A stretch of 64,000 bases of DNA from Escherichia coli (GCF_013315695.1 NZ_CP054353.1), one strand, 5' to 3'. Shown: positions 31,860 to 45,898, counted from the stretch's first letter. Numbers and translations: made by a program. The notes: generated from the letters alone by a model not told the origin.

Positions 31860-31957
31860 CAGCCGAAAGGCACCCGCGCGTAATTTACCGTTTCCTGAGT
31901 AAATTCTCCAAATAAAATTCCACAGTCAAAAGTACAGAAACAAAAACAGGTATGTGA

Positions 31958-32215
31958 TCACATCGCCGGAAGTGGCAGCGACATCTGCGCATCACCACGG
32001 TGTGACGCTGGCAGGCTCTGCCACGGAATATCCGGTGAAGTACCACCGCTGCGCTTTACGGTGAGTTTTTCGAAGCTCTCCAGCGTCGAGAAGGAGAGAC
32101 TGCATTCGGGATTGTTGCACTGGTAGAGCTTCTGCCGGACAGTGCGTGAGTCGTTCGCGGCGCGGCTTGTGCGGGTGCGCGTGCTCGCACCACAAAAAGG
32201 ACACGGAAAAGACAT
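31958..32215 (-). CDS. ogr: Ogr/Delta-type zinc-finger late-gene activator
   Basis: 85-aa ORF with CPFC...C...NPEC zinc-finger spacing, adjacent to gene D as in P2. Confidence 0.75.
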   Translation of the reverse strand: MSFPCPFCGASTRTRTSRAANDSRTVRQKLYQCNNPECSLSFSTLESFEKLTVKRSGGTSPDIPWQSLPASHRGDAQMSLPLPAM

Positions 32216-32267: not shown

Positions 32268-33383
32268 TTATTCCTGTTGCGCTATCCATTCAGGAATTTT
32301 TAATTCCAGCTCAAGCCGCGTGGTGAAGCCGCTGTCGTCGATGTTGTGCTCCACCTTCGCCAGTACCCAGTCCTCCGCGTCGATGTCACTCTTGAAACCG
32401 GATACCGTGCCGCGCATTTCGGGGTACAGGTCGGGGCGACCGCGTGCCAGCGTGATGGAGAACTCAGCCGCGCCGCGCTGTAGCTGCTGCCATTTTGCCG
32501 CCGCTGCACGGCGTGCGGCCTCCTCGTTTTTGAAGGTTTTACGCATGACGTACACATTGCCGTCTGCGCCCTCCATGTAATCCCCCTCGCGGCTGCTGCT
32601 TTTCTCCTTTTTTGTTTTTTGGGCAGAACCACGTTTTGTCACGCTGACTTTTTTCTTTTTGCCAAAGTCCAGATCCAGCCAGTAAGCGCGCACCCCCGTG
32701 TACGCCTGCCGGTCTGCAATGCGGAAGTGATGGCTGTCACCGCTGCTGCGGGTGATGGCGAATGAGGGCAGCGGCTTTCCGCTGGCGCTCACCCCCTGTC
32801 CGGGCACGATGAAAAGCAGGGCACCGTTTTTGACGGTGGCGATGGCGCCCAGCATGTCCGCCATGCGCGTGAGAAACGAGATGTCACTTTCCTCCGTCTG
32901 GTCGGCGTGGTCGATTTCCACCTCTGCCAGCGAGGCGCTGATTTGTGCCTTCAGTCCGTAGCGGTACGCGATGGCAGAAACAACCTGTCCCACCGTCACG
33001 TCATGCCAGGACACTTCACGCTTCACGTTGAACTCCTGCCGGAAGTCTGCGCTGCTGGCCGTGATGGTGAGCCTATCCGGTGGTCCCTCATGTGTCACCT
33101 CGTCAACGATGAAGGTTCCCTTGTCTGTCAGCGCCTCACCTTTCCAGCCCAGCGCCAGACCCAGCGTCTGTCCGCGCTTCGGGAGTTGCACTCCGCCGTC
33201 GCAGTCGTCAATCGTGAGGGTTAACTGGTCCGCCTCAAATCCCCGGTTGTCGGTCATCGCCAGCGAGATGACCCGTCGGGTCAGCGCCGCGTTTTCCGTG
33301 CCCTTAACCGTGATGGAAAAATCAGGGATCTTCACGCACTCTGACAGACCGTTCAGGTATCCGCTTACGTCCGCAGGGTTCAT
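32268..33383 (-). CDS. Tail protein D (P2 gpD family)
   Basis: Translation from the internal Met (MNPADVSGYLNG...) aligns along its length with my recollection of P2 gpD (LTMTDNRGFEADQL, SGDSHHF, EFSITLARGR motifs). Confidence 0.85.
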   Translation of the reverse strand: MNPADVSGYLNGLSECVKIPDFSITVKGTENAALTRRVISLAMTDNRGFEADQLTLTIDDCDGGVQLPKRGQTLGLALGWKGEALTDKGTFIVDEVTHEGPPDRLTITASSADFRQEFNVKREVSWHDVTVGQVVSAIAYRYGLKAQISASLAEVEIDHADQTEESDISFLTRMADMLGAIATVKNGALLFIVPGQGVSASGKPLPSFAITRSSGDSHHFRIADRQAYTGVRAYWLDLDFGKKKKVSVTKRGSAQKTKKEKSSSREGDYMEGADGNVYVMRKTFKNEEAARRAAAAKWQQLQRGAAEFSITLARGRPDLYPEMRGTVSGFKSDIDAEDWVLAKVEHNIDDSGFTTRLELELKIPEWIAQQE

Positions 33384-33545
33384 CGCAATTTCTCCGTCTG
33401 TGTCTTCGTCCGGCGAAATACTCCCACGCGCACGGAGGCGCTGTAATCCTGCGTATGTTGTCGGAGAACGGTGAGAACAGGCAGCGCGTGAATGCGGGGC
33501 TGTTTTTCGGGAGGATGTCGCCACACAAAACACCAGGAGGTGCTC

Positions 33546-34727
33546 ATGAGTGAAACACGCTTTCACGGTGCACGCGTCAAAGAAAACACCGACCTTGTGA
33601 CCGCGATTAATGACATTGATTCCAGTGTCATCGGTATCGTGGCCACGGCGGACGATGCAGACAGCGACGCGTTCCCGTTAAACAAACCCGTATTGATCAC
33701 CCGCGTGGCGAATGTGCTGGGTAAGGCAGGCACAACAGGCACGCTGTACAAAACGCTCAAGGCGATTTCCGACCAGACCAGCCCGAAGGTTATCGTGGTG
33801 CGTGTGGCTGAAGCCGGAGAGGAAGGTGAGACACAGGATCAGCTTGTCATCGGTGGCTCGCAGGCTGACGGCAGCTACACGGGCATGTATGCCCTGCTGG
33901 TTGCTGAACAGGACGAGAGCATTGGTTACCGCCCGCGCATTCTGGCGGCTCCCGGCCTGGATACCGAAGCAGTCACATCCGCCCTGTGCGTCATTGCGGA
34001 CAAGCTCCGCGCCTTTGTGTACGCCGGATGTAACGGGTGCGACACGATGGCGGAGGCAATCACTTACCGTGCGAAGTTCTCCGCGCGTGAGCTGATGCTG
34101 CTGTGGCCTGACTTCATTGCCTACAACCCGGTGAGCGGAAATAACGAAACATTTCCGGCAGCGGCGTATGCGTGCGGGTTGCGTGCGCGGATTGACAGTG
34201 AACAGGGCTGGCACAAGTCACTGTCCAACGTGGCGCTGAAAAATGTTCTCGGTATGTCGCAGCAGGTGTTCTGGTCGTTGCAGGCCGAAGACAGTGATGC
34301 GAACAACCTGAACAACAAGGAAATCACCACGATTATTCGCCGTAACGGCTTCCGCTTCTGGGGGAACCGTACTGCCGAAACCAGCGACTACATCTTTGAG
34401 GTGTACACGCGCACAGCGCAGATTCTGGCAGATACCATCGCTGAGGCGCAGTTCGAAACCATTGACGAACCGCTGACCCCGGCGAACGTGAAGGACGTGA
34501 TTAGCGCCATCCGCGCAAAACTCAACGCCCTGGTCACCGCCGGGAAACTCATCGGTGCGGAGTGCTGGTATGACGTGCTGGACAACGGCACGACGGATTT
34601 GCGTCAGGGGCGCGTGCGCATCCGCTACAAGTACACGCCAGTGCCGCCGATGGAAGATCTGACGCTGTATCAGACCTTCACGGATGAGTATTTCGACTCC
34701 GCTTTTGCAACGCTGGGAGGTGCGTAA
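33546..34727 (+). CDS. Contractile tail sheath protein (gpFI)
   Basis: From ATG 33546 with AGGAGG RBS; FPLNKPVLIT, GFRFWGNRT and YTPVPPMEDLTL motifs match P2 FI. Confidence 0.9.
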   Translation: MSETRFHGARVKENTDLVTAINDIDSSVIGIVATADDADSDAFPLNKPVLITRVANVLGKAGTTGTLYKTLKAISDQTSPKVIVVRVAEAGEEGETQDQLVIGGSQADGSYTGMYALLVAEQDESIGYRPRILAAPGLDTEAVTSALCVIADKLRAFVYAGCNGCDTMAEAITYRAKFSARELMLLWPDFIAYNPVSGNNETFPAAAYACGLRARIDSEQGWHKSLSNVALKNVLGMSQQVFWSLQAEDSDANNLNNKEITTIIRRNGFRFWGNRTAETSDYIFEVYTRTAQILADTIAEAQFETIDEPLTPANVKDVISAIRAKLNALVTAGKLIGAECWYDVLDNGTTDLRQGRVRIRYKYTPVPPMEDLTLYQTFTDEYFDSAFATLGGA

Positions 34728-35243
34728 ATGGCTGTACCACGTTACGTTCGCCAGTTCACGCTGTTTGTGAACGGCAAAAACAAAATCGGCACGGTGACAG
34801 GCGTCACTCTGCCCAAGCTGACCCGAAAAACCGAAGCCTATCGCGGTGGCGGGATGCTGGGTGCGGTGCATATTGACCTCGGACTGGATGACGGCGCACT
34901 GGATGCCTCGTTCACCACCGGTGGGGTTGAAAAAGAGCTGCTCCAGGAATACGCCACTGACATTAACGAAGTGGCGCTGCGCTTTGTGGGTGAGCTGTTC
35001 ACCGATGGTGAGGAAAGTCAGCTCCTTGAGGTGGAGATGCGCGGACGCATCACGGAAATCGACCGTGGCGAAACCAAACAGGGCGACACCACACAGTACA
35101 CCTTCGCCGTCAAAAACACCTACTACAAGGAGTCGGTGGATGACAGTGATGTGACAGAAATCGACCTGCTGAACTTCATCTACAAAAAAGACGGCCAGAA
35201 CGTCTTTGGTGACCGCGTGAGTTCGGCGCTCGGTCTGAACTGA
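34728..35243 (+). CDS. Tail tube protein (gpFII)
   Basis: 171-aa ORF immediately after FI, P2 FII-like. Confidence 0.9.
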   Translation: MAVPRYVRQFTLFVNGKNKIGTVTGVTLPKLTRKTEAYRGGGMLGAVHIDLGLDDGALDASFTTGGVEKELLQEYATDINEVALRFVGELFTDGEESQLLEVEMRGRITEIDRGETKQGDTTQYTFAVKNTYYKESVDDSDVTEIDLLNFIYKKDGQNVFGDRVSSALGLN

Positions 35244-35289
35244 CAGCATTAACAGGGCGGCACATTGTGCCGCCACAGGAGAAAGAAAA

Positions 35290-35673
35290 ATGGCAGCAAA
35301 GAAAGATGACATCATGAACAGCGAAATCGTCGCAGGTGACACCACCACTGAAAACATCGATGTGGCAGAGGAAAAAACGGGGGTGAAGTTATCCTGCCCG
35401 GTGGTGCGTGGCGAACGCGTTATTGACTACGTGGAGATTGGCGAGGAAATCCGTCAGGCAGGCTCGTTGCGCGGGCTGTCTCTGATTGAGGTGCTGAACC
35501 TCAAAACGGACCCGATGATGACGCTGCTTTCGCGCGTGACCGCACCACGCCTGAAGCTGGCAGAAATCCAGACACTGGACACCGGTGATTTCGTGGCGCT
35601 GGCGACTATGGCTGCGAATTTTTTTGCTCCCACGGAGTCTGCGAAACCGTCCGTGGCGGTGATGGAAGCGTAA
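35290..35673 (+). CDS. Tail assembly chaperone gpE
   Basis: 127-aa ORF between the tube and tape-measure genes; contains a T7G slippery run near its 3' end. Confidence 0.7.
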   Translation: MAAKKDDIMNSEIVAGDTTTENIDVAEEKTGVKLSCPVVRGERVIDYVEIGEEIRQAGSLRGLSLIEVLNLKTDPMMTLLSRVTAPRLKLAEIQTLDTGDFVALATMAANFFAPTESAKPSVAVMEA

Positions 35674-35837
35674 TCACGCTGGCGAAGTTCGACAACGTTG
35701 AAGAACTGGTCGCTGATATAGCAGTCGTGTTTAACTGGTCGCCCGGCGAGATATTCTCAATGCCTCTCGTCGAGGTGATGAGCTGGCGTGAGCGGGCGGC
35801 GCAACGTAGCGGAGTCCGCAACAGTGAAATCCCTTGA
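35290..35837 (+). CDS. gpE+E' fusion produced by programmed -1 frameshift
   Basis: TTTTTTTG at 35619-35626; the -1 frame is open from the slip site to TGA at 35835-35837, overlapping the start of T, as in P2 E/E'. Confidence 0.55.
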
Positions 35838-38800
35838 TATTCGTGTCAGCTTTGGCGCAATTGACCGGCTGACATGCCCGACCGAAAACGCCCGCCGTCA
35901 GGTGGGCGCTCTCACTGAATCCCTTCAGAAGACGCAGAACAACATACAGGCGCTCGACAGACAGTCGAAGGTGTTCGATCGTGCCGCCGGAAATCTCAGT
36001 AAATACCGCGAACAGATTGCCCGCGCGGAGCAGAGGCTCGCCGGGCTGCGAAAGGCAGAGCAGAACGGTAACATCCTCTCCGAAAAGCAGCGCGAAACGC
36101 TGGCGGCACTCTCCGCGCGGCTTGAGCGCCTGAACGAGCTGCGCACGCGCGAGCGCGAAAAACTCCAGGCGGCGGCTGGCGAAATGCGTAAACATGGCAT
36201 TCTGCTTTCCGGCAGCAGCCGCACCATCGAAAGTGCCGTTCGTCGCACGCAGCAGTACAACGAGCAGCTCGAGCGTGAACGGCAGGCTCTGGCTCGCGTG
36301 ACGCAGGCACAGAGCCGCTATGAGGCCGCGAAGGCACAGGCGGAAAAACTGCGCAACACAGGGGCTGTGGCGATGGCGGCGGGTACAGGCGGCCTGTATG
36401 CGGCGCAGCGCATGATGGCTCCGGCGATGGAGTCCGAACAGCACGGTGCGGTCATCGCAGCCGGTTCGGGGGAAGGCGCACAGGATGGCGCACGTTACAC
36501 CCACATCATCCGTAACATACAGGCTGACGGTCTCGCTGATTTTGCCGGTGCTGCGGAGGCCGTGAGTGCGGTACGCAGCACGCTCGGCGCACTGGGCGAC
36601 ACCGGTGACAGGGAGCTTGAGCGCATCAGCCGTCGTGCGCTGGATATGCGGACCGTCTTTGGTGTTGATGTGCCGCAGAGCATTCAGGCCGCTGCCATCA
36701 TGATGAAGAACGGGCTGGCCGCCAGCAGTGACGAGGCTACTAACCTGATGACGGCAGGGATGCAGCGCATGTCCGCTGAAATGCGCGATGAACTGCCGGA
36801 AATTCTGCATGAGTATTCCACCCACTTCCGCAACATGGGCTTCACCGGCAGCGAGACAATGAGTCTGCTGGTTGAGATGGCAAAGCAGGGCAAGTTTGCG
36901 CTGGACAAAACCGGCGATGCCGTGAAGGAGTTCAGTATCCGTGGTTCGGATATGTCGAAATCCAGTGTTTCAGCGTATGAGACACTTGGCCTGAATGCCG
37001 AACGGGTGTCTGCTGCCATTGCTCAGGGGGGCAGTACCGCACGCCAGGCGATGCAGGTGACCGCCCGTGCACTGCTGGCCATCCGTGACCCGGCAGAGCG
37101 GGCGAACACGGCCATTGCGTTATTCGGCACCCCCGTTGAAGACCTTTCCGTTGACCAGATCCCGCAGTTCCTGAGGGCGCTGGCTGATGTTCGTGACAAT
37201 CTGGGCGATGTCACCGGTGTGGCAGACCGCATGGGGCAGACGCTGCGCGGTAATCTCTCCGGCGATATTCAGGCGCTGAGTGGTGCGTTCTCAGGGCTAC
37301 GCACGGACATCTTCGGTACTGTGACCGAGGATTTGCGCGGGCTGGTTCAGACGGTGAGCGCGTGGGTGACCCGGATGCGCGAATGGGTCGGAGAGCATCA
37401 GGCGCTGGTCAGGGTGCTGGTACTGGCGGGCGGGAGTGTTCTGGCGCTGTCTTCTACGTTCGGTGCGCTGTCACTGACGCTCGGGCTGATTGCGGGGCCG
37501 CTGGCAAAACTGCAACTGGGACTGGGGCTGCTGACGGGGGGCGGCGGCATTGGTGGTGCTGTCCGGCTTGTGTCTGCGATGGCGCTGCGCCTGACGGGGC
37601 TGCCTGCGCTGTGGGGGCTGGTCACGGGGGCGGTGTCGGTACTGGGTGGTGCAGTGGGGGCGCTGTTCAGCCCGGTCGGGCTGATTGTTGCCGCCCTGGT
37701 GGGCGGCGCGGTTCTGGTGTGGAAATACTGGGATCAGATCAGTGCGTTTTTTTCCGGCTTTTTTGCCGGAGTGTGGGAGGCGCTGCAACCGCTGCGGGAA
37801 GCCTTTGCGTCGCTGGCTCCGGTGTTCGGGCTGATTGGCGATGGCATCAAAGCCGTGTGGGAATGGTTCACCCGCCTGCTTGAACCTGCAAACGCCTCAA
37901 AAGAGACACTCGACAAATGCACCAGCGCCGGGGAGTCGTTCGGGAAAACGCTGGGGTGGGTCATTCAGAACATTGTGCTGGGGCCGCTGACACTGCTTCT
38001 TGATGGCCTCGGCACAGTGCTGAAGTGGCTGGGTGTTATCCCGGATGGCATCAGGGAAGCGCAGAAGGAGACGCAAAAACTCCAGGAGAGCGCCGCAAAA
38101 CAGGCCACACAAAAAGCGCCGGTTGCGTGGGAGTGGGATCCTGCACAGAAAAAAATGGTGCAGAAAACATGGTCGTGGTCATCAGATGCAGCGGAAAACA
38201 ACGGTGACAATAAACCCGCAATACCTGCCCCTGCGGTTCCCGGAGAGGTGAAGGGAACGTCAGACAATCCGGTCGGCAAACCCGGTAGTAAATCCCCGCT
38301 GGATGAGGCATGGTTCCGGCAGGGGATACAGAAAACCGCCAGCAACACCGGCGGGCTGCTTGAGGAAACCAAAAAACGTACTGGTCCCGGCGATATTGTT
38401 TTCAAAAACCTGCCCGGACCCGAAATCATTCACGGCGAGTGGAAAGCACCGCAGGTTATCCGGACAGTGCAGGCGGTATCGGCGGGCGGAGGACTGGCGG
38501 ATGCGCTGACAACGCTCTGGCAGAAACTCACCGGAAGACAGACTGCTTCACCCGTTCCGGTCGTGAATATTCCTGCGCCAGTGGAGAGAGTGGCACGTCA
38601 GGTATCCACGCTGCCACAGCCGCAGCACAACGAGGCAAATACAGAACTGGTTGCCGGTATTCAGCGCGTGCATGAGGCTGTGAACAGTCCGGGGGGAGAG
38701 ACGGTATCGCCTCCACCTGTGGTGAACGTTCTGATGCCAGCAGTGAATGTTCCTGCGCCAGTGGTGAGTGTGGCGCGTCAGGTATCCACGCTGCCGCAGC

Positions 38801-39288
38801 ACAACGAGGCAAATACAGAACTGGTTGCCGGTATTCAGCGTGTGCATGAGGCGGTGAACAGTCCGGGTGGAGAGACGGTATCGCCTCCACCTGTGGTGAA
38901 CGTTCTGATGCCAGCAGTGAATGTTCCTGCGCCAGTGGTGAGCGTGGCCCGTCAGGTATCCACGCTGCCGCAGCACAACGAGGCAAATACAGAGCTGGCT
39001 GCCGGTATTCAGCGCGTGCGTGAGGCTGTGAACAGTCCGGGTGGAGATGTGGCTTTATCTGTTCCTGTTGCGGAGGTTATCCGTCCACCGCTGCGACCGG
39101 AGTCCGTCAAAAAAGAAACCGCGCCACAAACGCAGGCTGCGGTATTTTCCGGTGAGATACACGTGCATCTGCACAACGTCAACACGCAGAATCCGCGTGA
39201 ACTGGCAAAACTGGTTGGCGAGGCTGTCCGCGAAGAGATGCGCAGACAGGTGCGTACAGGCATGAACAGCTTCCGTGACAGGGACTAA
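35788..39288 (+). CDS. Tail tape measure protein (gpT)
   Basis: 1166-aa ORF with a coiled-coil N-terminal half, Gly-rich TM segments and C-terminal tandem repeats; the track start at 35788 is a GTG and the true start is uncertain. Confidence 0.85.
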   Translation: MSGRRNVAESATVKSLDIRVSFGAIDRLTCPTENARRQVGALTESLQKTQNNIQALDRQSKVFDRAAGNLSKYREQIARAEQRLAGLRKAEQNGNILSEKQRETLAALSARLERLNELRTREREKLQAAAGEMRKHGILLSGSSRTIESAVRRTQQYNEQLERERQALARVTQAQSRYEAAKAQAEKLRNTGAVAMAAGTGGLYAAQRMMAPAMESEQHGAVIAAGSGEGAQDGARYTHIIRNIQADGLADFAGAAEAVSAVRSTLGALGDTGDRELERISRRALDMRTVFGVDVPQSIQAAAIMMKNGLAASSDEATNLMTAGMQRMSAEMRDELPEILHEYSTHFRNMGFTGSETMSLLVEMAKQGKFALDKTGDAVKEFSIRGSDMSKSSVSAYETLGLNAERVSAAIAQGGSTARQAMQVTARALLAIRDPAERANTAIALFGTPVEDLSVDQIPQFLRALADVRDNLGDVTGVADRMGQTLRGNLSGDIQALSGAFSGLRTDIFGTVTEDLRGLVQTVSAWVTRMREWVGEHQALVRVLVLAGGSVLALSSTFGALSLTLGLIAGPLAKLQLGLGLLTGGGGIGGAVRLVSAMALRLTGLPALWGLVTGAVSVLGGAVGALFSPVGLIVAALVGGAVLVWKYWDQISAFFSGFFAGVWEALQPLREAFASLAPVFGLIGDGIKAVWEWFTRLLEPANASKETLDKCTSAGESFGKTLGWVIQNIVLGPLTLLLDGLGTVLKWLGVIPDGIREAQKETQKLQESAAKQATQKAPVAWEWDPAQKKMVQKTWSWSSDAAENNGDNKPAIPAPAVPGEVKGTSDNPVGKPGSKSPLDEAWFRQGIQKTASNTGGLLEETKKRTGPGDIVFKNLPGPEIIHGEWKAPQVIRTVQAVSAGGGLADALTTLWQKLTGRQTASPVPVVNIPAPVERVARQVSTLPQPQHNEANTELVAGIQRVHEAVNSPGGETVSPPPVVNVLMPAVNVPAPVVSVARQVSTLPQHNEANTELVAGIQRVHEAVNSPGGETVSPPPVVNVLMPAVNVPAPVVSVARQVSTLPQHNEANTELAAGIQRVREAVNSPGGDVALSVPVAEVIRPPLRPESVKKETAPQTQAAVFSGEIHVHLHNVNTQNPRELAKLVGEAVREEMRRQVRTGMNSFRDRD
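38555..39052 (+). repeat. Tandem repeats of 180/174 nt inside the tape-measure gene (about 2.8 copies)
   Basis: gtgaat(a/g)ttcctgcgccagtgg... recurs at 38563, 38743 and 38917; encoded peptide PAPVxxVARQVSTLPQ...HNEANTELVAGIQRVHEAVNSPGGETVSPPPVVNVLMPAVNV repeats in frame. Confidence 0.7.
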
Positions 39289-39760
39289 AGGAGACGCAAT
39301 TATGATGATGATTTTTGGCATGTTTGTGTTTGAACTGAAAACGCTGCCGCATCAACAGATTCAACAAAACAAAACGTGGCGGCATGTGAAAAATGAGCGA
39401 ATCAACCGTTCTGCGGCCTGGCAGTATATTGGCGCAGGTGACGACCAGATCACGCTGTCCGGTCTGCTGTACCCGGAAATTACCGGCGGTGAGGTGTCGC
39501 TGACACTGCTGAACACCCAGGCCTACACCGGATGTCCCTGGCCGCTGATTGATGGTACGGGGCAGATTTACGGAATGTACGTGATTACGGGATTACAGAC
39601 CACCCGCTCCGAACTGGATCGCTACGGGAAGGCAAAAAAGATTGAGTTCTCCATCAGCTTTCAGCGGTGTGATGAGGATATGCGGGAGAGGCTTCAGTCT
39701 GCTTCTGCAGGTGATTTACTGAACACGCTTAAAGACAAAATGGCGATAGCGGCATTCTGA
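39275..39760 (+). CDS. Tail protein U (gpU family)
   Basis: 161-aa ORF following T with an MMMIFGMFVFELKT segment; the actual start may be the internal ATG at 39302. Confidence 0.8.
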   Translation: MTGTKGDAIMMMIFGMFVFELKTLPHQQIQQNKTWRHVKNERINRSAAWQYIGAGDDQITLSGLLYPEITGGEVSLTLLNTQAYTGCPWPLIDGTGQIYGMYVITGLQTTRSELDRYGKAKKIEFSISFQRCDEDMRERLQSASAGDLLNTLKDKMAIAAF

Positions 39761-39770
39761 ATAAAAAAAG

Positions 39771-39795
39771 AGGGAGTGTAAAAAGCACTCCCTTA
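39771..39795 (-). terminator. Intrinsic terminator, minus-strand orientation, abutting the U stop codon
   Basis: Reverse complement reads gggagtg-cttttta-cactccc followed by tctttttttat. Confidence 0.45.
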
Positions 39796-40140
39796 TTGCC
39801 TTCATGGAAAAGAAGCAAATGTTGTCAATACATTCTGACTATATATAAATCGCCCGATGAAGGCAATGGTGATGTTCGGGAAATAAAAAAGCCCTCACAA
39901 AGAGGGCGGCATGCATTGTGTGAAGATTTAATTTTTCTGCTTGCAGGGGGATTATATTGAACGGTATTCATTCAATGCAATATTTTTAATTGTCATTATC
40001 ATTAATGAAAATGTTTCTTGTGTTTTTGTTGCTCTGATTACAATCCCGTTTATTACTGTGTCTTTGCGGCAAAAAAAAAGCCCGCACGGGGCGGGCAAAG
40101 AATGTTTGCATGTGTAGAACAGTGCGGGATTATAAATATA

Positions 40141-40560
40141 TTATGCGTTCTGAAAAGTCCCCTTTGATGGAGATTCAGGCCATACCAGCGCATTATAACA
40201 ATCTTTATTCATCACGGAAGTGAACGTCAACTGCTGAAGTTCCCTAATATATTCAATCCACGTAGCCAACCTTCCCTTGTCTGCATTGCTGATGGTGCCG
40301 GGCAATAACTCAGATTGCCAGATTCTGATCCTCTCTTTTGCCTCCGGCAGCAGGGGATTTCGTTGTCATTCTGCTTTAGCCTGCCACTTTTCAGGTGGCA
40401 GCACATGACGAACAATATTTTCATCATCAAATATCCAGTTACCTGAGTCATCAGCACGTTGGTTAGCGTTAATATCAGAAGTATTAACAACACTAAAACC
40501 GACATGATTAAGTGTTGATGCCTCTCTGGTAATGGTGACAATAATATTATTTCGTTGTAA
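40141..40560 (-). pseudogene. Degenerate ORF of unknown family with an in-frame TGA and no start codon
   Basis: Minus-strand frame reads ...NWIFDDENIVRHVLPPEKWQAKAE*QRNPLLPEAKERIRIWQSELLPGTISNADKGRLATWIEYIRELQQLTFTSVMNKDCYNALVWPESPSKGTFQNA*, protein-like on both sides of the internal stop. Confidence 0.4.
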
Positions 40561-40770
40561 ATCATTTTGATTTTATCTGGTCGAAAGGTCCCTGCTTCGT
40601 TATGTCAGTTTTATCGCCTTCAGAGGAAACCAGATTACTTTGTGCTTCTTTTTCTAACACATACAGTCCCGGAGTTAATATTGCCTGTTTTATGTTCTTG
40701 AGTGCATCATATTAATCTCTTACATATTGTATCTGGTGAAATTTATAATTTTCTGAAGCTGCCTGAAAGA

Positions 40771-40870
40771 ATTGAGTTTCCTGCAGGCTTTCAATGGTGT
40801 GATGAGGATATGTGGGAGAAACTCCAGTCTGCTCCTGCAGGGGGGGCTTACTGAACACTATCAAAGACAA
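40771..40870 (+). repeat. Diverged direct copy of the 3' end of gene U
   Basis: attgagtttcctgcaggctttcaatggtgtgatgaggatatgtgggagaaactccagtctgctcctgcag...ctgaacac...aaagacaa parallels U 39641-39740 at about 80 percent identity. Confidence 0.6.
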
Positions 40871-40903
40871 ATCTTCGTCGTTGATCGCATTCCCTTAACC
40901 TGA

Positions 40904-40938
40904 CGCCACCACCCCACACAGATGACGGGGTGGTGGCG
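40904..40938. terminator. Perfect 12-bp inverted repeat hairpin between convergent tail operons
   Basis: cgccaccacccc ... ggggtggtggcg, located between the rightward FI-U unit and the leftward H unit. Confidence 0.5.
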
Positions 40939-40943
40939 TGATT

Positions 40944-41240
40944 TCACCAGTAACTAACCAGCAGCCAGAACAACAGGCATATTGCCACTGGTGCAGCAAA
41001 ATCCATCAGGCTTCCGGCATCCCACACGCGCGGATCAAAACCACCCCACCAGGGCATGTTAATTCGTTTCCCTTTCCCGAATTTTTCAATCCAGCGATAT
41101 TCTGCCTGGGTGTGTTCACGCGCAATGAAGAACGAGCAACCGGCTATCGCTCCGTAAACCCAGTTTCCCGTAAGAATGCCAGCCAGTACCTGCGCAGCCA
41201 CGGCACAAAGTGCATGAAGGACAGGCGTTATATCCATCAC
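40944..41240 (-). CDS. Hypothetical small membrane protein downstream of the tail fibre gene
   Basis: 98-aa ORF with hydrophobic N- and C-terminal segments (MMDITPVLHALCAVAAQVLAGILTG...AICLLFWLLVSYW); no family recognised. Confidence 0.5.
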   Translation of the reverse strand: MMDITPVLHALCAVAAQVLAGILTGNWVYGAIAGCSFFIAREHTQAEYRWIEKFGKGKRINMPWWGGFDPRVWDAGSLMDFAAPVAICLLFWLLVSYW

Positions 41241-41249
41241 TCCCTCCCT

Positions 41250-41528
41250 TCAGCTCCATTCCCGAAGCGGTGCTTCCAGCTCCACCACATAATCAGAGAA
41301 CACAGAAACATCAAACGTATCATCAAGAATACGAATGTTGACAAAATAACCGTCATTCCGGATACAGACAGGTTCTCCCTCTTCATTTTCCCCTGTTTCT
41401 GTATAGGTGAAACCAATTTCATCGACTAACAGTTTGTTCTGGAGGTCTTCATTTTCCTCCCAGCCAAGAGATGACAGGAGGGCTTTAAACTGCTGTTTGT
41501 CATGAAACTTCAAAGTCAAATCTTTCAT
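41250..41528 (-). CDS. Hypothetical acidic protein downstream of the tail fibre gene
   Basis: 92-aa ORF overlapping the H stop by 4 nt; strongly acidic; no family recognised; it occupies the position of a tail fibre assembly protein. Confidence 0.5.
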   Translation of the reverse strand: MKDLTLKFHDKQQFKALLSSLGWEENEDLQNKLLVDEIGFTYTETGENEEGEPVCIRNDGYFVNIRILDDTFDVSVFSDYVVELEAPLREWS

Positions 41529-43306
41529 ATTGCCTCTCTTAATTGCCTGTCATTTAATTCTTTATGCCATATGCGGAAATTACGAATGTGACCAAACAGA
41601 TGTCGTTCTCCAGTACTCGTTCGCCCTCCAATACGGATAATTGCGGAGTTCTGAATATATGACCATGTGGTTTTTGTTTCGCCGGATAACCGTCCGTTAC
41701 TGACTGAGCATGTAGACTGATCTGACTTTACTCGCATCCCTATAACCATTTTTTCAAGTGATGCGTTTTCGTTTACCCGCATGTTAGCCCCGCCTATATC
41801 GCAATAAGGAAATCCGTCGTAATCCGTCGAACGACCGAATCCAAGAATAATTTCCTCTCCAGTTTGATGACCACTGGTATTAAGAACACGCGGTGCTGCA
41901 TTTGGCGTTTTATACCAGTTCTTATGTACCTCACAAAGAACAGTAAAAGGAGGATTATAAAGATTATTCTTAACCGGAACTGTCACAATATCACTTGCAC
42001 GTGTTGCTGGTGTTGCACCCGATATAATAAATGATGATGCGCAGGGGCCATTTTCAACCTGAGGGGTGGACAGGAAAACATAATCTCCTGATTCAACGAC
42101 ACCACCTTCTTTCGGAGTGTATTGTATTGCCGATGTTATGTAGGACTCATCAATTGCCTGAATCGTTGCCTCTGCAAAAATCCAGCCGGTAACCTCATCT
42201 TTGTTAACTCGGGCAGTGATCCTGTCGGCAGCTCCTCCTGTGATTTTAACTGATAAAGATCGCGTATTAACAATGGCATATCCAAGGTTAGATGATGTGT
42301 TGCCATCGTAAGATTCAAACCTGATCCTTAACATGAGTTCCAGATCAGTTTTAAATCTGCACGATGTCGTCACGCACTTATTATCGCCTGAAACATCGAC
42401 GGCTCCGGTTACTGCAACTGATGCCATGTTAACAGGCAGGGACTGCCCAATCAGAGAATCGTTACAGACGAACTTTCCATAGGTAAAACCAGAACTGTCC
42501 GTCCCGGTTTCGGGAACATCCATATTTACCGACTTGCCCCAGTTGACCGGGGTTTCCGAATTGAGCATGTAGTTTGTTCTTTGCCCTTCAATAAGCAGTC
42601 CATCGCGTTCAAATCGCGGCTCATTAATTTCAGCTATTTTCAGTTCACCGGATTTATTGATATAGGTTGCCGTTGATGCGCGACTGAAACTAACCTGTTT
42701 ATCACTGGCAACCTGAACCACATCGTCACCAATGGTGATTTTTTTATAGCCCGGTGCGAACCCCGTAAGCATATCCAGTGAATCGTTAAACGGTATCCAC
42801 ACATCAGGCAGCGGCGGTACAGACTCCTTTTCCTGCGCAACATATTCTTCAACATAGGCGCGGGTGGCGAGCACGACAGAGGGATCAACTTTCAGTTCGA
42901 CAGACGAAGCACTGGAAACCACAACAATCATGCGAATCGTCTGCGTGCGCCCGCTTCCCTCGGTGAGTACAGGCTTGTAGGTTTCGGGGCAGTTCGCCAC
43001 GGCAATCATCACGCCGTCGCTGTCAAAAAGCCCAATCTCGCGGATCCAGAACCCCCCTTTATCTTCCGGGATAATCATCTCGGCGATAAGCTGGCTGGCA
43101 TCAGACGCGCTGATGCTCAGTTGATTCAATGGGGCGCTGTATACCGTGTTCACCAGATTTTCCATGGAAGCCTCCGGTTCCGGCAGGCTGCCGCCGCCAT
43201 CCCCCAGTTTCATGGTGGTGATGGATATTTTCGAGCCGCTGGCCACCGCCTTTGCCAGACGGGCGGCACCCTTGTCAGTCAGAACAGAAAAATATTTTAC
43301 AGTCAT
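41525..43306 (-). CDS. Tail fibre protein (gpH family) with divergent lower-GC C-terminal module
   Basis: N-terminus matches P2 H (ITTMKLGDGGG, GFWIREIGLFD, AVANCPETYKPVLTEGSG, RMIVVVSSASSVEL); the C-terminal two thirds are unrelated to P2 H. Confidence 0.8.
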   Translation of the reverse strand: MTVKYFSVLTDKGAARLAKAVASGSKISITTMKLGDGGGSLPEPEASMENLVNTVYSAPLNQLSISASDASQLIAEMIIPEDKGGFWIREIGLFDSDGVMIAVANCPETYKPVLTEGSGRTQTIRMIVVVSSASSVELKVDPSVVLATRAYVEEYVAQEKESVPPLPDVWIPFNDSLDMLTGFAPGYKKITIGDDVVQVASDKQVSFSRASTATYINKSGELKIAEINEPRFERDGLLIEGQRTNYMLNSETPVNWGKSVNMDVPETGTDSSGFTYGKFVCNDSLIGQSLPVNMASVAVTGAVDVSGDNKCVTTSCRFKTDLELMLRIRFESYDGNTSSNLGYAIVNTRSLSVKITGGAADRITARVNKDEVTGWIFAEATIQAIDESYITSAIQYTPKEGGVVESGDYVFLSTPQVENGPCASSFIISGATPATRASDIVTVPVKNNLYNPPFTVLCEVHKNWYKTPNAAPRVLNTSGHQTGEEIILGFGRSTDYDGFPYCDIGGANMRVNENASLEKMVIGMRVKSDQSTCSVSNGRLSGETKTTWSYIQNSAIIRIGGRTSTGERHLFGHIRNFRIWHKELNDRQLREAI

Positions 43307-45320: not shown

Positions 45321-45898
45321 TGCGGGCCTCCTGTGCTGTCACCGCCGCTCTTCACGCCACTGTGTTTGTGCGTGTGCAGCGTCACACCGTTTGAGGTGAA
45401 ATCACCGCCGCTGTGCGAGATACTGCCACTCATGGTTCCGCCTTCTGTCACCTCAATCGTTGTCGTCTTCAGATGGTTTGTGCAGGTGACGGTGGGGGTA
45501 TCCAGCGTCACGCCTGTTCCGGCCTGAATGGTGGCAGTTTTGATTCCGCTGGCGCTCAGTGCGCCAGCGTCCGCATCGTAGCGGAACACCGCGCCGTCAG
45601 GCGCTGTAACCACGATTTCCGTCAGGCTGCTGCCGGGCGCCGGATGTTCGCTGCTCCAGAGACTGCCGATGACGGACGCGGTCGCGGGGTCGCCACCGAT
45701 GCAGGCAATCATGACCTGTTCGCCCACGGCAGGCGGCAGCCAGACGCTGAACGCGCCCGCGCGTGGTGTGTTCCAGCGCAGCCAGTCGGTTTCCAGCTCT
45801 CCGCTGCGCACGCGAACGCGCCACGTTGTTTCGTCCACGGCAAAAATCACGCCCGTGCGGATGATATTTGCAAGCAGTCGCATGATTTCCGCTGTCAT
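45317..45898 (-). CDS. Baseplate spike protein gpV
   Basis: 193-aa ORF with the C-terminal GVTLHTHKH..GG.TGGP motif of P2 V. Confidence 0.85.
   Translation of the reverse strand: MTAEIMRLLANIIRTGVIFAVDETTWRVRVRSGELETDWLRWNTPRAGAFSVWLPPAVGEQVMIACIGGDPATASVIGSLWSSEHPAPGSSLTEIVVTAPDGAVFRYDADAGALSASGIKTATIQAGTGVTLDTPTVTCTNHLKTTTIEVTEGGTMSGSISHSGGDFTSNGVTLHTHKHSGVKSGGDSTGGPQ

Follow-up and report, generated by a model that had tools for sequence, protein, structure and literature searches.

Gene order of the late region

The 64,000-nucleotide Escherichia coli sequence analysed here (GCF_013315695.1, NZ_CP054353.1; hereafter the window) contains a P2-like prophage, inserted beside ihfA in an E. 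coli-type chromosome and running off the window end, in which the tail genes FI to U lie in the opposite orientation to that in P2. This raises the questions of whether the order is a rearrangement, a mosaic, an assembly error or an inherited feature, and of how the genes on either side of the resulting divergent D/FI junction may be transcribed. The inverted FI-U block is the fixed, inherited order of the P88-like clade, a large and well-sampled group of P2-family phages, and is thus unremarkable, being neither a rearrangement nor an assembly error. Considered jointly, the best explanation, and in our judgement a highly probable one, is a P88-like prophage with a single old, clade-fixed FI-U inversion and a bidirectional Ogr-type promoter between D and FI.

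The annotated P2 record has H-G-FI-FII-E-T-U-D-ogr as a co-directional series, by comparison with which the block in the window is inverted, as a sequence-only reading of this DNA had claimed. ORF lists together with PHROGs, NCBIfam and Pfam assignments confirmed the strands given in that reading, with D, ogr and H to O on the minus strand and FI-FII-E/E'-T-U on the plus strand; the divergent D/FI junction, put at about 160 bp, proved to be a spacer of exactly 162 bp (33384-33545). U and H are indeed convergent, but the junction is not tight, with 1.76 kb between them.

On the minus strand, the late control D/tail protein gene (32268-33383; phrog_52, E=2.9e-151) has its own RBS and ATG, the start codon having been checked, and diverges from FI; 52 bp downstream on the same strand is an ogr-like late-gene activator with an Ogr/Delta zinc finger (31958-32215; Pfam Ogr_Delta PF04606, E=2.9e-13), which has 40% identity to P2 Ogr across the zinc finger and a homologue in E. 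coli TUM9803 that PGAP names 'ogr/Delta-like zinc finger family protein'. The plus-strand block opens with the tail sheath gene FI (33546-34727; phrog_23, E=4e-126) and the tail tube gene FII (34728-35243; TIGR01611 tail_tube, 121.8 bits, above cutoff), followed by E (35290-35673; phrog_103). A -1 frameshift product E+E' (35290-35837) is predicted from the slippery sequence T TTT TTT G at 35619-35626, which is in the X XXY YYZ register, the -1 frame being open until a stop at 35837; PGAP annotates a GpE-family ORF at the matching place in E. coli TUM9803. The tape measure gene T (35788-39288; phrog_28, E=9.5e-111) encodes 1166 amino acids from a GTG at 35788, with a PGAP-equivalent alternative start at GTG 35824, and contains three 174-nt tandem repeats (38619-39140; repeat family D1). 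The tail protein gene U (39302-39760; phrog_76, E=2.7e-65) is the last of the inverted block, all genes of which are intact, including the E/E' slippery site. Convergent with the block is the tail fibre gene H (41525-43306, minus; phrog_327/phrog_1419), beyond which I, J, W, V, S, R, the lysis genes, L, M, N and O are all on the minus strand, and P and Q on the plus strand. An Rfam scan of 31.2-41.7 kb gave no match within or beside the FI-U block, the only matches being sok-like and STnc540, near the prophage end.

Family and clade membership

The prophage has the Peduoviridae late set (Q, P, O, N, M, L; R, S, V, W, J, I, H; FI, FII, E/E', T, U, D), and tblastn with 20 window proteins found every P2 counterpart at 24-57% identity. 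It also has the family's Ogr/Delta zinc-finger activator and a predicted E/E' -1 frameshift signal upstream of the tape-measure gene. The canonical co-directional H-to-ogr order is absent from the window, but it is not family-defining, because three ICTV genera within Peduoviridae lack it: Xuanwuvirus (P88, phiSM), Novemvirus (T5282H) and Senquatrovirus (SEN5).

P2 (Peduovirus) resembles the prophage in gene set, Ogr-type activator, E/E' -1 frameshift on a T-run (predicted here), divergence of P-Q from O-N, and the position of ogr downstream of D. In P2, however, FI-U-D make up a single co-directional operon read from pF, the U and D genes overlap, and a separate pV promoter lies between S and V; the window combines an inverted FI-U with a D that carries start signals of its own, and it lacks any pV-type box.

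The closest layout is that of Escherichia phage P88/P88_4B11 and Citrobacter phage phiSM (Xuanwuvirus), in which the late order is identical: ogr and D (minus)/FI-FII-E-E'-T-U (plus)/fibre module/H to O (minus)/P and Q (plus). In these phages, too, the D/FI spacer (about 157 bp) has TGTTGT-N12-AGA at its centre and the O/P spacer contains another box, S and V overlap without pV, and a hok-like gene adjoins ogr. By comparison with them, the window has late genes of only 38-85% amino acid identity and neither an invertase nor an invertible fibre segment in the U-H interval; its H differs at the C-terminus, its T is longer (1166 versus 935 amino acids), and it carries no cargo from ogr to the prophage end. 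The prophage also shows the features expected of the P88-like clade, namely the grouping of its D and FI proteins, a TGTTGT-N12-A[G/C]A box in the middle of the D/FI spacer with a -10 element on either side, FI divergent from D over some 150-230 bp (162 bp here), U some 5-6 kb off on the FI strand, and ogr downstream of D. ICTV genera are delimited at approximately 70% or more nucleotide identity over genome length; the high nucleotide identity to P88 expected within Xuanwuvirus was not found in the 9.7-kb tail region, of which megablast covered 24% at 77% identity.

Salmonella phage SEN5 and Enterobacter phage phiT5282H likewise have the inverted FI-U block and divergent D/FI, and fall in the same D and FI tree clade, although they are more distant (D 62% and 72% identical, respectively), and in the alignment the SEN5 spacer has a degenerate box with ATTGT instead of TGTTGT. 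In neighbour-joining trees of D and of FI the inverted group formed one clade in each, and the trees were congruent. D identity was 62-74% to clade members and at most 52% to every canonical-order phage sampled (P2, Gegavirus, Fels-2, Shewanella and Mannheimia phages), a sample comprising these five fetched genomes and one published table, that of KS5 (PMC3091744), which places the inversion point in the family tree roughly.

Distribution of the inverted order

FI was divergent from and adjacent to D in 80 of the 80 best D-relatives in IMG/VR, as it was in the functional phages P88_4B11, phiSM, SEN5 and T5282H. In the 83 loci scored, without exception, the aligned D and FI gene starts were 159-232 bp apart on the same relative strands; the opposite orientation was found in none of 86 relatives. 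The order also occurs in an E. coli TUM9803 prophage (92% nucleotide identity) and in prophages of complete E. coli genomes that are 92-94% identical. A D/FI junction query had matches in 1488 of 5426 complete E. coli genomes (approximately 27%); 11 of 12 evenly sampled matches that were checked span both genes contiguously. Inducible or active phages with this order include P88 and phiSM (PMC5285337; PMC6456863).

The sequence-only reading had proposed a rearrangement or recombinant mosaic of this element, unless co-linear relatives routinely shared the divergent arrangement. They do, in IMG/VR loci, isolated phages and complete E. coli genomes alike, and the arrangement is thus a lineage feature; the mis-assembly that had also been raised falls with the recurrence of the order in independent complete genomes and phages.

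The D/FI spacer as a candidate bidirectional promoter

The 162-bp spacer contains at its middle an Ogr-type activator box, TGTTGTCGGAGAACGGTGAGAACAGG (33456-33481; inner TGT-N12-AGA, centre 33467.5), and on either side of it a predicted -10 element. Towards D, an extended -10, TGGGAGTAT (33418-33426, minus), is predicted from its conservation in relatives and includes the hexamer GAGTAT (33423-33418), giving a predicted transcription start at about 33411; towards FI, the predicted -10 is GAGGAT (33511-33516, plus), with a start at about 33523. The box is palindromic and equidistant from both elements, its centre being 49.5 nt from the 3' end of the -10 on the D side and 48.5 nt on the FI side. 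Across 73 unique spacers of relatives, TGTTGT is invariant and A-[G/C]-A conserved; on the D side the pattern TGnRAYCAT is conserved (TG 73/73, final T 73/73), and on the FI side GAnnAT (A2, A5 and T6 each 73/73).

Promoters on both sides of the spacer had been anticipated, together with an Ogr-type TGT-N12-ACA element. Late-promoter signatures do occur in both directions, although as predictions from sequence; as to the element, the one-mismatch variant TGT-N12-AGA is present and the exact form, which occurs in the spacers of 21 of the 73 relatives, is absent. A search for exact TGT-N12-ACA gave none in the D/FI spacer and 9 overall against 16 expected, no better than chance, and a search allowing one mismatch was uninformative on its own (295 found, 303 expected); the box signal emerged only because the spacers were compared with one another for repeats and for conservation. 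Box-type 26-mers occur only twice in the 64 kb, against none expected by shuffling, in the D/FI and O/P spacers. Similarly, TGTTGT-N12-A[CG]A occurs exactly twice in the prophage and exactly twice in P88_4B11, always in these two spacers. No promoter in the D/FI spacer emerged from a generic scan for sigma-70 promoters and terminators, as expected for activator-dependent promoters without a -35 element.

The arrangement matches that of P2 pP/pO, in which one dyad-symmetric TGT-N12-ACA-type site lies midway between divergent late promoters, its centre 48.5 nt from the 3' end of each -10 and about 55-56 nt from each start, the start sites and shared activator site being as annotated in the P2 record; in the window, the dyad site is about 55 bp from the two predicted divergent starts. 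In P2 the shared-site design is known at P/O only, where it was mapped experimentally, whereas at D/FI it is a prediction. We infer from these signatures that the D/FI spacer is a bidirectional Ogr-type late promoter, and likewise infer Ogr binding, the transcription start sites and co-transcription of D and ogr. Because the predicted -10 facing D is of the extended (TGn) type, D might be transcribed to some degree independently of Ogr.

The conservation of this extended -10, a feature that can lessen dependence on an activator, is compatible with a narrower possibility, in which the inverted order is still characteristic of the lineage but FI alone responds to the central box, the D promoter being Ogr-independent or located elsewhere. 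We consider this improbable given that the box is palindromic and equidistant from the two -10 elements, in the geometry of P2 pP/pO, that the symmetric design is repeated at O/P in both the prophage and P88, and that D encodes a late structural protein required together with the products of FI-U.

Proposed late control from two symmetric sites

The second activator box, TGTTGTCGGAGAACCGCCAGAACAGG (52014-52039), is near-identical to the first and occupies the middle of the divergent O/P spacer, between the O ATG at 51948 (minus) and the P ATG at 52100 (plus). Its flanking -10 elements are TAGCCT (52070-52075, plus), which is identical to the P2 pP -10 hexamer, and CATCAT (51981-51976, minus). 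No pV-type box was found in this prophage; S and V overlap, and there is therefore no pV-type site.

A single TGTTGT-N12-A[G/C]A site would thus activate two divergent late promoters about 55 bp off on each side, by analogy with the single shared site that serves the divergent pP and pO in P2. At D/FI, one promoter would drive FI to U and the other D, probably reading on into ogr. With boxes at D/FI and O/P and no pV, two bidirectional nodes would govern the entire late region, its four units being P-Q, O to H, FI to U and D-ogr. On balance we favour the view that a second bidirectional Ogr-dependent late promoter at D/FI either originated together with a single ancient inversion or was co-opted later, and that this, with the loss of pV, left two nodes controlling four operons.

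Origin of the orientation

An inversion did take place, but only in evolutionary terms: it is an old event, fixed in the whole clade. It is best pictured as one inversion with one breakpoint immediately ahead of the pF activator site and the other between U and D; such an event would make D, and then ogr, a transcription unit of its own, diverging from FI across approximately 160-230 bp.

The possibility that FI-U was instead imported from another phage lineage in the opposite orientation draws on the mosaicism of P2-like phages, on an H C-terminus and accessory ORFs that are common to lambdoid phages, and on the close similarity of the early genes to those of P88-type phages (ParM-like 99% and A 88% amino acid identity to P88, as against 60-85% in the late genes). 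It is nevertheless very unlikely, as within the block identities to P88 and P2 respectively were 85% and 47% for FI, 63% and 43% for FII, and 78% and 47% for U, in the same range as those of the flanking genes D (73% and 48%), V (75% and 47%), P (74% and 48%) and Q (77% and 49%); the P88 values for D, FI and U refer to P88_4B11. Identity to both phages is uniform across block and flanks, the block genes are as P88-like as their neighbours and the block is therefore not foreign; the congruence of the trees for FI, inside the block, and D, outside it, also argues against importation.

There is next to no chance that FI-U is a programmed segment caught in one orientation by a Gin/Cin/Pin-type invertase. 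A serine invertase does adjoin U in P88_4B11, phiSM and 18 of 91 fetched loci, but there it adjoins duplicated, opposed tail-fibre and assembly genes, not FI-U. The window has none of the features of such a segment: a search for an invertase found none (best tblastn match E=0.02 over 35 amino acids), no inverted repeats were found at the ends of the FI-U block, and no relative among the 86 is flipped. Mis-assembly, or a recent private inversion that might have crippled this prophage, has nothing in its favour other than the departure from P2 order and can be dismissed with near certainty: independent complete genomes and isolated phages show the same order with the same junctions, as do 80 of 80 IMG/VR relatives and roughly 27% of complete E. 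coli genomes; the regulatory elements at either side of the spacer are conserved; and the block genes and slippery site are intact.

Old, clade-wide inversion therefore remains the preferred origin, and the inverted arrangement itself is the normal layout of P88-like phages. Papers on P88, SEN4/5, phiSM and Serratia PP4 make no mention of an inversion, and no published description of it or of P88-like late promoters was found, subscription-only literature aside. Not every member of the P2 family has the gene order of P2, and a different order should therefore not be taken as a sign of rearrangement or faulty assembly. In this clade, nature supplies a case in which a palindromic activator site, usable both ways, has allowed an operon to be inverted and stay viable, a view that yields a simple testable prediction on late-gene control in P88-like phages. 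If the two-node model is correct, the inversion would serve as a clean, undescribed synapomorphy of a group above genus rank in Peduoviridae, D-ogr would be an Ogr-activated positive-feedback unit apart from the sheath and tube genes, and late control in a very common enterobacterial phage clade would rest on two symmetric activator nodes.

The interval between U and H

Directly after U is a hairpin (39771-39793) that is terminator-like on both strands, followed by roughly 1 kb of AT-rich DNA (39794-40765) that separates it from a degenerate remnant of a second U 3' end (40766-40900, plus). The remnant was recognised as direct repeat D3 (39636-39711 versus 40766-40841, 79% identical), with the ORF fragments ...FQWCDEDMWEKLQSAPAGG and GGLLNTIKDK, and is followed by a strong hairpin at about 40903-40938; remnant and hairpin mark an older U end. 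Two small ORFs lie downstream of H (40944-41528, minus; phrog_1443 and phrog_1361), in a tail-fibre module shared with lambdoid phages, whose side-tail-fibre regions it matches at 88% nucleotide identity. The prophage clearly has different histories at its tail-fibre end and in its early region.

Orientation of the FI-U block relative to P2

The left part of the window is E. coli-type chromosome carrying pheS, pheT and ihfA (30988-31287); among 5426 complete E. coli genomes, 5425 have a match to the ihfA flank, most of them at an identity of at least 99%. A P2-family prophage spans from about 31.5 kb to the window end. Genes were mapped from ORF lists, PHROGs, NCBIfam and Pfam. An ogr-like gene (31958-32215) and D (32268-33383) lie on the minus strand and are followed on the plus strand by FI (33546-34727), FII (34728-35243), E (35290-35673), T (35788-39288) and U (39302-39760). 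H (41525-43306) and, beyond it in this order, I, J, W, V, S, R, the lysis genes, L, M and N are all on the minus strand, as is O (start 51948); P (52100-53842) and Q (53842-54891) are on the plus strand, and early genes follow as far as the window end. FI-U is an intact module, and the T7G slippery run of E/E' (35619-35626) is in the correct register for a -1 frameshift, with the -1 frame open as far as 35837.

In the annotated P2 record H, G, FI, FII, E, T, U, D and ogr occupy a single strand and U overlaps D, whereas here D/ogr and H through O share one strand and FI-U takes the other, with a 162-bp spacer (33384-33545) between D and FI. Comparison with this record therefore confirmed the inversion proposed by the sequence-only reading; the U/H junction is convergent, as also proposed, but at 1.76 kb wide it is not tight.

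Conservation of the arrangement among relatives

The same order and strands are found in the annotated phages P88_4B11 and Citrobacter phiSM (Xuanwuvirus), SEN5 (Senquatrovirus) and phiT5282H (Novemvirus); phiSM is temperate and active, and P88 has been induced and lyses strains of E. coli (PMC5285337; PMC6456863). A D-protein profile search of IMG/VR retrieved more than 571 stretches, and in all of the best 80 loci scored (67-74% D identity) FI diverged from D, the aligned starts of the two genes being separated by 159-232 bp, with U about 5.3 kb off on the FI strand and ogr downstream of D. Copies with 92-94% identity that stay colinear from ogr past U are present in complete E. coli genomes; an 862-bp query spanning the junction matched 1488 of 5426 such genomes, and 11 of 12 matches sampled evenly down the ranking, O157:H7 strains included, spanned D and the sheath gene contiguously. 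All sampled phages whose D identity was no higher than 52% had the canonical order (P2, Gegavirus, Fels-2, a Shewanella phage, a Mannheimia phage and Burkholderia KS5, the last from a table in PMC3091744), and in an evenly spaced sample of 60 of 474 records D identities fell from 62% to 52% with nothing between. Neighbour-joining trees were built for D, which lies outside the block, and for FI, a block gene; each gave one inverted clade with SEN5 basal and the canonical-order phages outside.

The sequence-only reading had taken the arrangement to imply a roughly 6.4-kb inversion or a recombinant mosaic. Amino acid identities to P88 and P2 are 85% and 47% for FI, 63% and 43% for FII and 78% and 47% for U, which fall in the range of the flanking late genes (D, 73% and 48%; V, 75% and 47%; J, 70% and 56%; P, 74% and 48%; Q, 77% and 49%), indicating that the block is not foreign. 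These uniform identities, the trees and the same order in phages, IMG/VR loci and E. coli genomes rule out a private rearrangement, a mosaic or an artefact, since co-linear relatives share the divergent arrangement. A switchable segment is likewise ruled out, as there are no inverted repeats at the block ends and no invertase in the window. The FI-U orientation is a lineage feature, an evolutionary inversion, and the element both belongs to and works like the P88-like clade of Peduoviridae (phages with FI-U opposite to P2).

By late-region nucleotide identity the element is probably not a Xuanwuvirus (24% coverage at 77% identity). Its early region (56804-60713, minus strand) is far closer to P88_4B11 (ParM-like partition protein 99.4% and replication protein A 88% amino acid identity) than are its structural genes (38-85%), which points to recent exchange of the early module. 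Searchable papers on P88, SEN4/5, phiSM and related prophages held no comment on the gene order, and we found no study of late promoters in the P88-like clade; as annotated genomes from several ICTV genera already show this order in public records, the finding itself is ordinary.

A predicted bidirectional control region between D and FI

The sequence-only reading called for promoters on both sides of the D/FI spacer. The exact TGT-N12-ACA activator motif is absent from this spacer, but predicted promoter signatures are present on both sides. The 26-mer TGTTGTCGGAGAACGGTGAGAACAGG (33456-33481) has a second copy, with four changes, in the divergent O/P spacer (52014-52039), and no pair of this kind arose in shuffled sequence. 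The core of this Ogr-type box is a dyad, TGTTGT-N12-AGAACA (inner triplets TGT-N12-AGA), and it is central in both spacers: the start codons lie 84 nt (D) and 78 nt (FI) away in one and 77 nt (O) and 74 nt (P) away in the other. TGTTGT-N12-A[CG]A occurs exactly twice in the prophage and exactly twice in P88_4B11, only in the D/FI and O/P spacers. Across 73 non-identical D/FI spacers of relatives TGTTGT was invariant and the right arm was A-[G/C]-A (G in 52, C in 21). On the FI side these spacers carry GAnnAT (A2, A5 and T6 in 73/73), here GAGGAT at 33511-33516, whose 3' end is 48.5 nt away from the centre of the box; the minus strand of the D side carries an extended -10, TGnRAYCAT (TG in all 73), here TGGGAGTAT at 33426-33418, ending 49.5 nt from the centre. 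The P2 record shows a single activator site shared by the divergent pP and pO (mapped start sites 3016 and 3127), whose -10 hexamers, TAGCCT and GAAACT, both end at a distance of 48.5 nt from the centre of the box; the P-side hexamer in the window is also TAGCCT. A second instance of the pP/pO design, the predicted D/FI promoter adds a small point that can be tested.

An Ogr homologue is identified by a Pfam match and similarity to P2 Ogr. From the boxes and -10 elements we infer Ogr binding, Ogr dependence and start sites, those at D/FI predicted at about 33523 (plus) and 33411 (minus). From a single site in each of two bidirectional control regions, bound Ogr would drive four late units: P-Q, O to H, FI to U, and D, which probably runs on into ogr across a 52-bp gap without a terminator. 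S and V overlap by 4 nt (45895-45898), leaving no room for a pV-type promoter, and there is no box between them, so the lineage seems to lack the separate pV promoter of P2, and a single long late unit would extend from O to H.

Additional features of the prophage

An STnc540 sRNA match (Rfam, 31229-31373, plus; 41.1 against a gathering score of 38 bits) overlaps the ihfA 3' end immediately ahead of the prophage boundary, and the left att site is expected at about 31.4-31.6 kb. Between the left end of the prophage and ogr is a hok/sok-like type I toxin-antitoxin pair (31589-31875, minus), with a 46-aa Hok-family ORF (31729-31589; NCBIfam HokA, E=2e-8, under cutoff) and a sok match (Rfam, 31716-31875; 48.4 bits, E=1.5e-8, under the gathering score of 59); in P88_4B11 the equivalent position is occupied by a 'MokW-like host killing' gene. 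T has three tandem 174-nt (58-aa) repeats near its C-terminus (38563-39140), the first two 97% identical and the third 62%, and is 1166 aa long, longer than its counterparts in P88_4B11 (935 aa) and P2 (815 aa); E. coli TUM9803 has a homologue of similar length. A low-GC cargo gene (55450-56256, plus) has no NCBIfam match and matches the PADLOC candidate defence family PDC-M04A (E=2.6e-35); it lies between Q and the partition/replication genes, a cargo hotspot of the P2 family.

Within 39761-40940, downstream of U, is about 1 kb of AT-rich (~44% GC), apparently non-coding DNA with several terminator-like hairpins and a minus-strand promoter-like site (TTTTCA-16-TATAAT, 40156-40129), followed by a second, degenerate U 3' end (40766-40900), part of which is 79% identical to 39636-39711, and a strong hairpin. 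The AT-rich DNA and U-end remnant look like a scar left by recombination or insertion; 71 E. coli genomes share the AT-rich part at 85-88% identity, mostly without annotation, and it could hide small RNAs or peptides. The C-terminal two-thirds of H (phrog_1419) and two small downstream ORFs (phrog_1443 and phrog_1361), within 40944-43306 on the minus strand, show ~88% nucleotide identity to side-tail-fibre regions of lambdoid phages, and GC falls to ~44-46%. This appears to be a host-range module swapped between phage families, and in this prophage it takes the place of the invertase and invertible fibre segment of P88.
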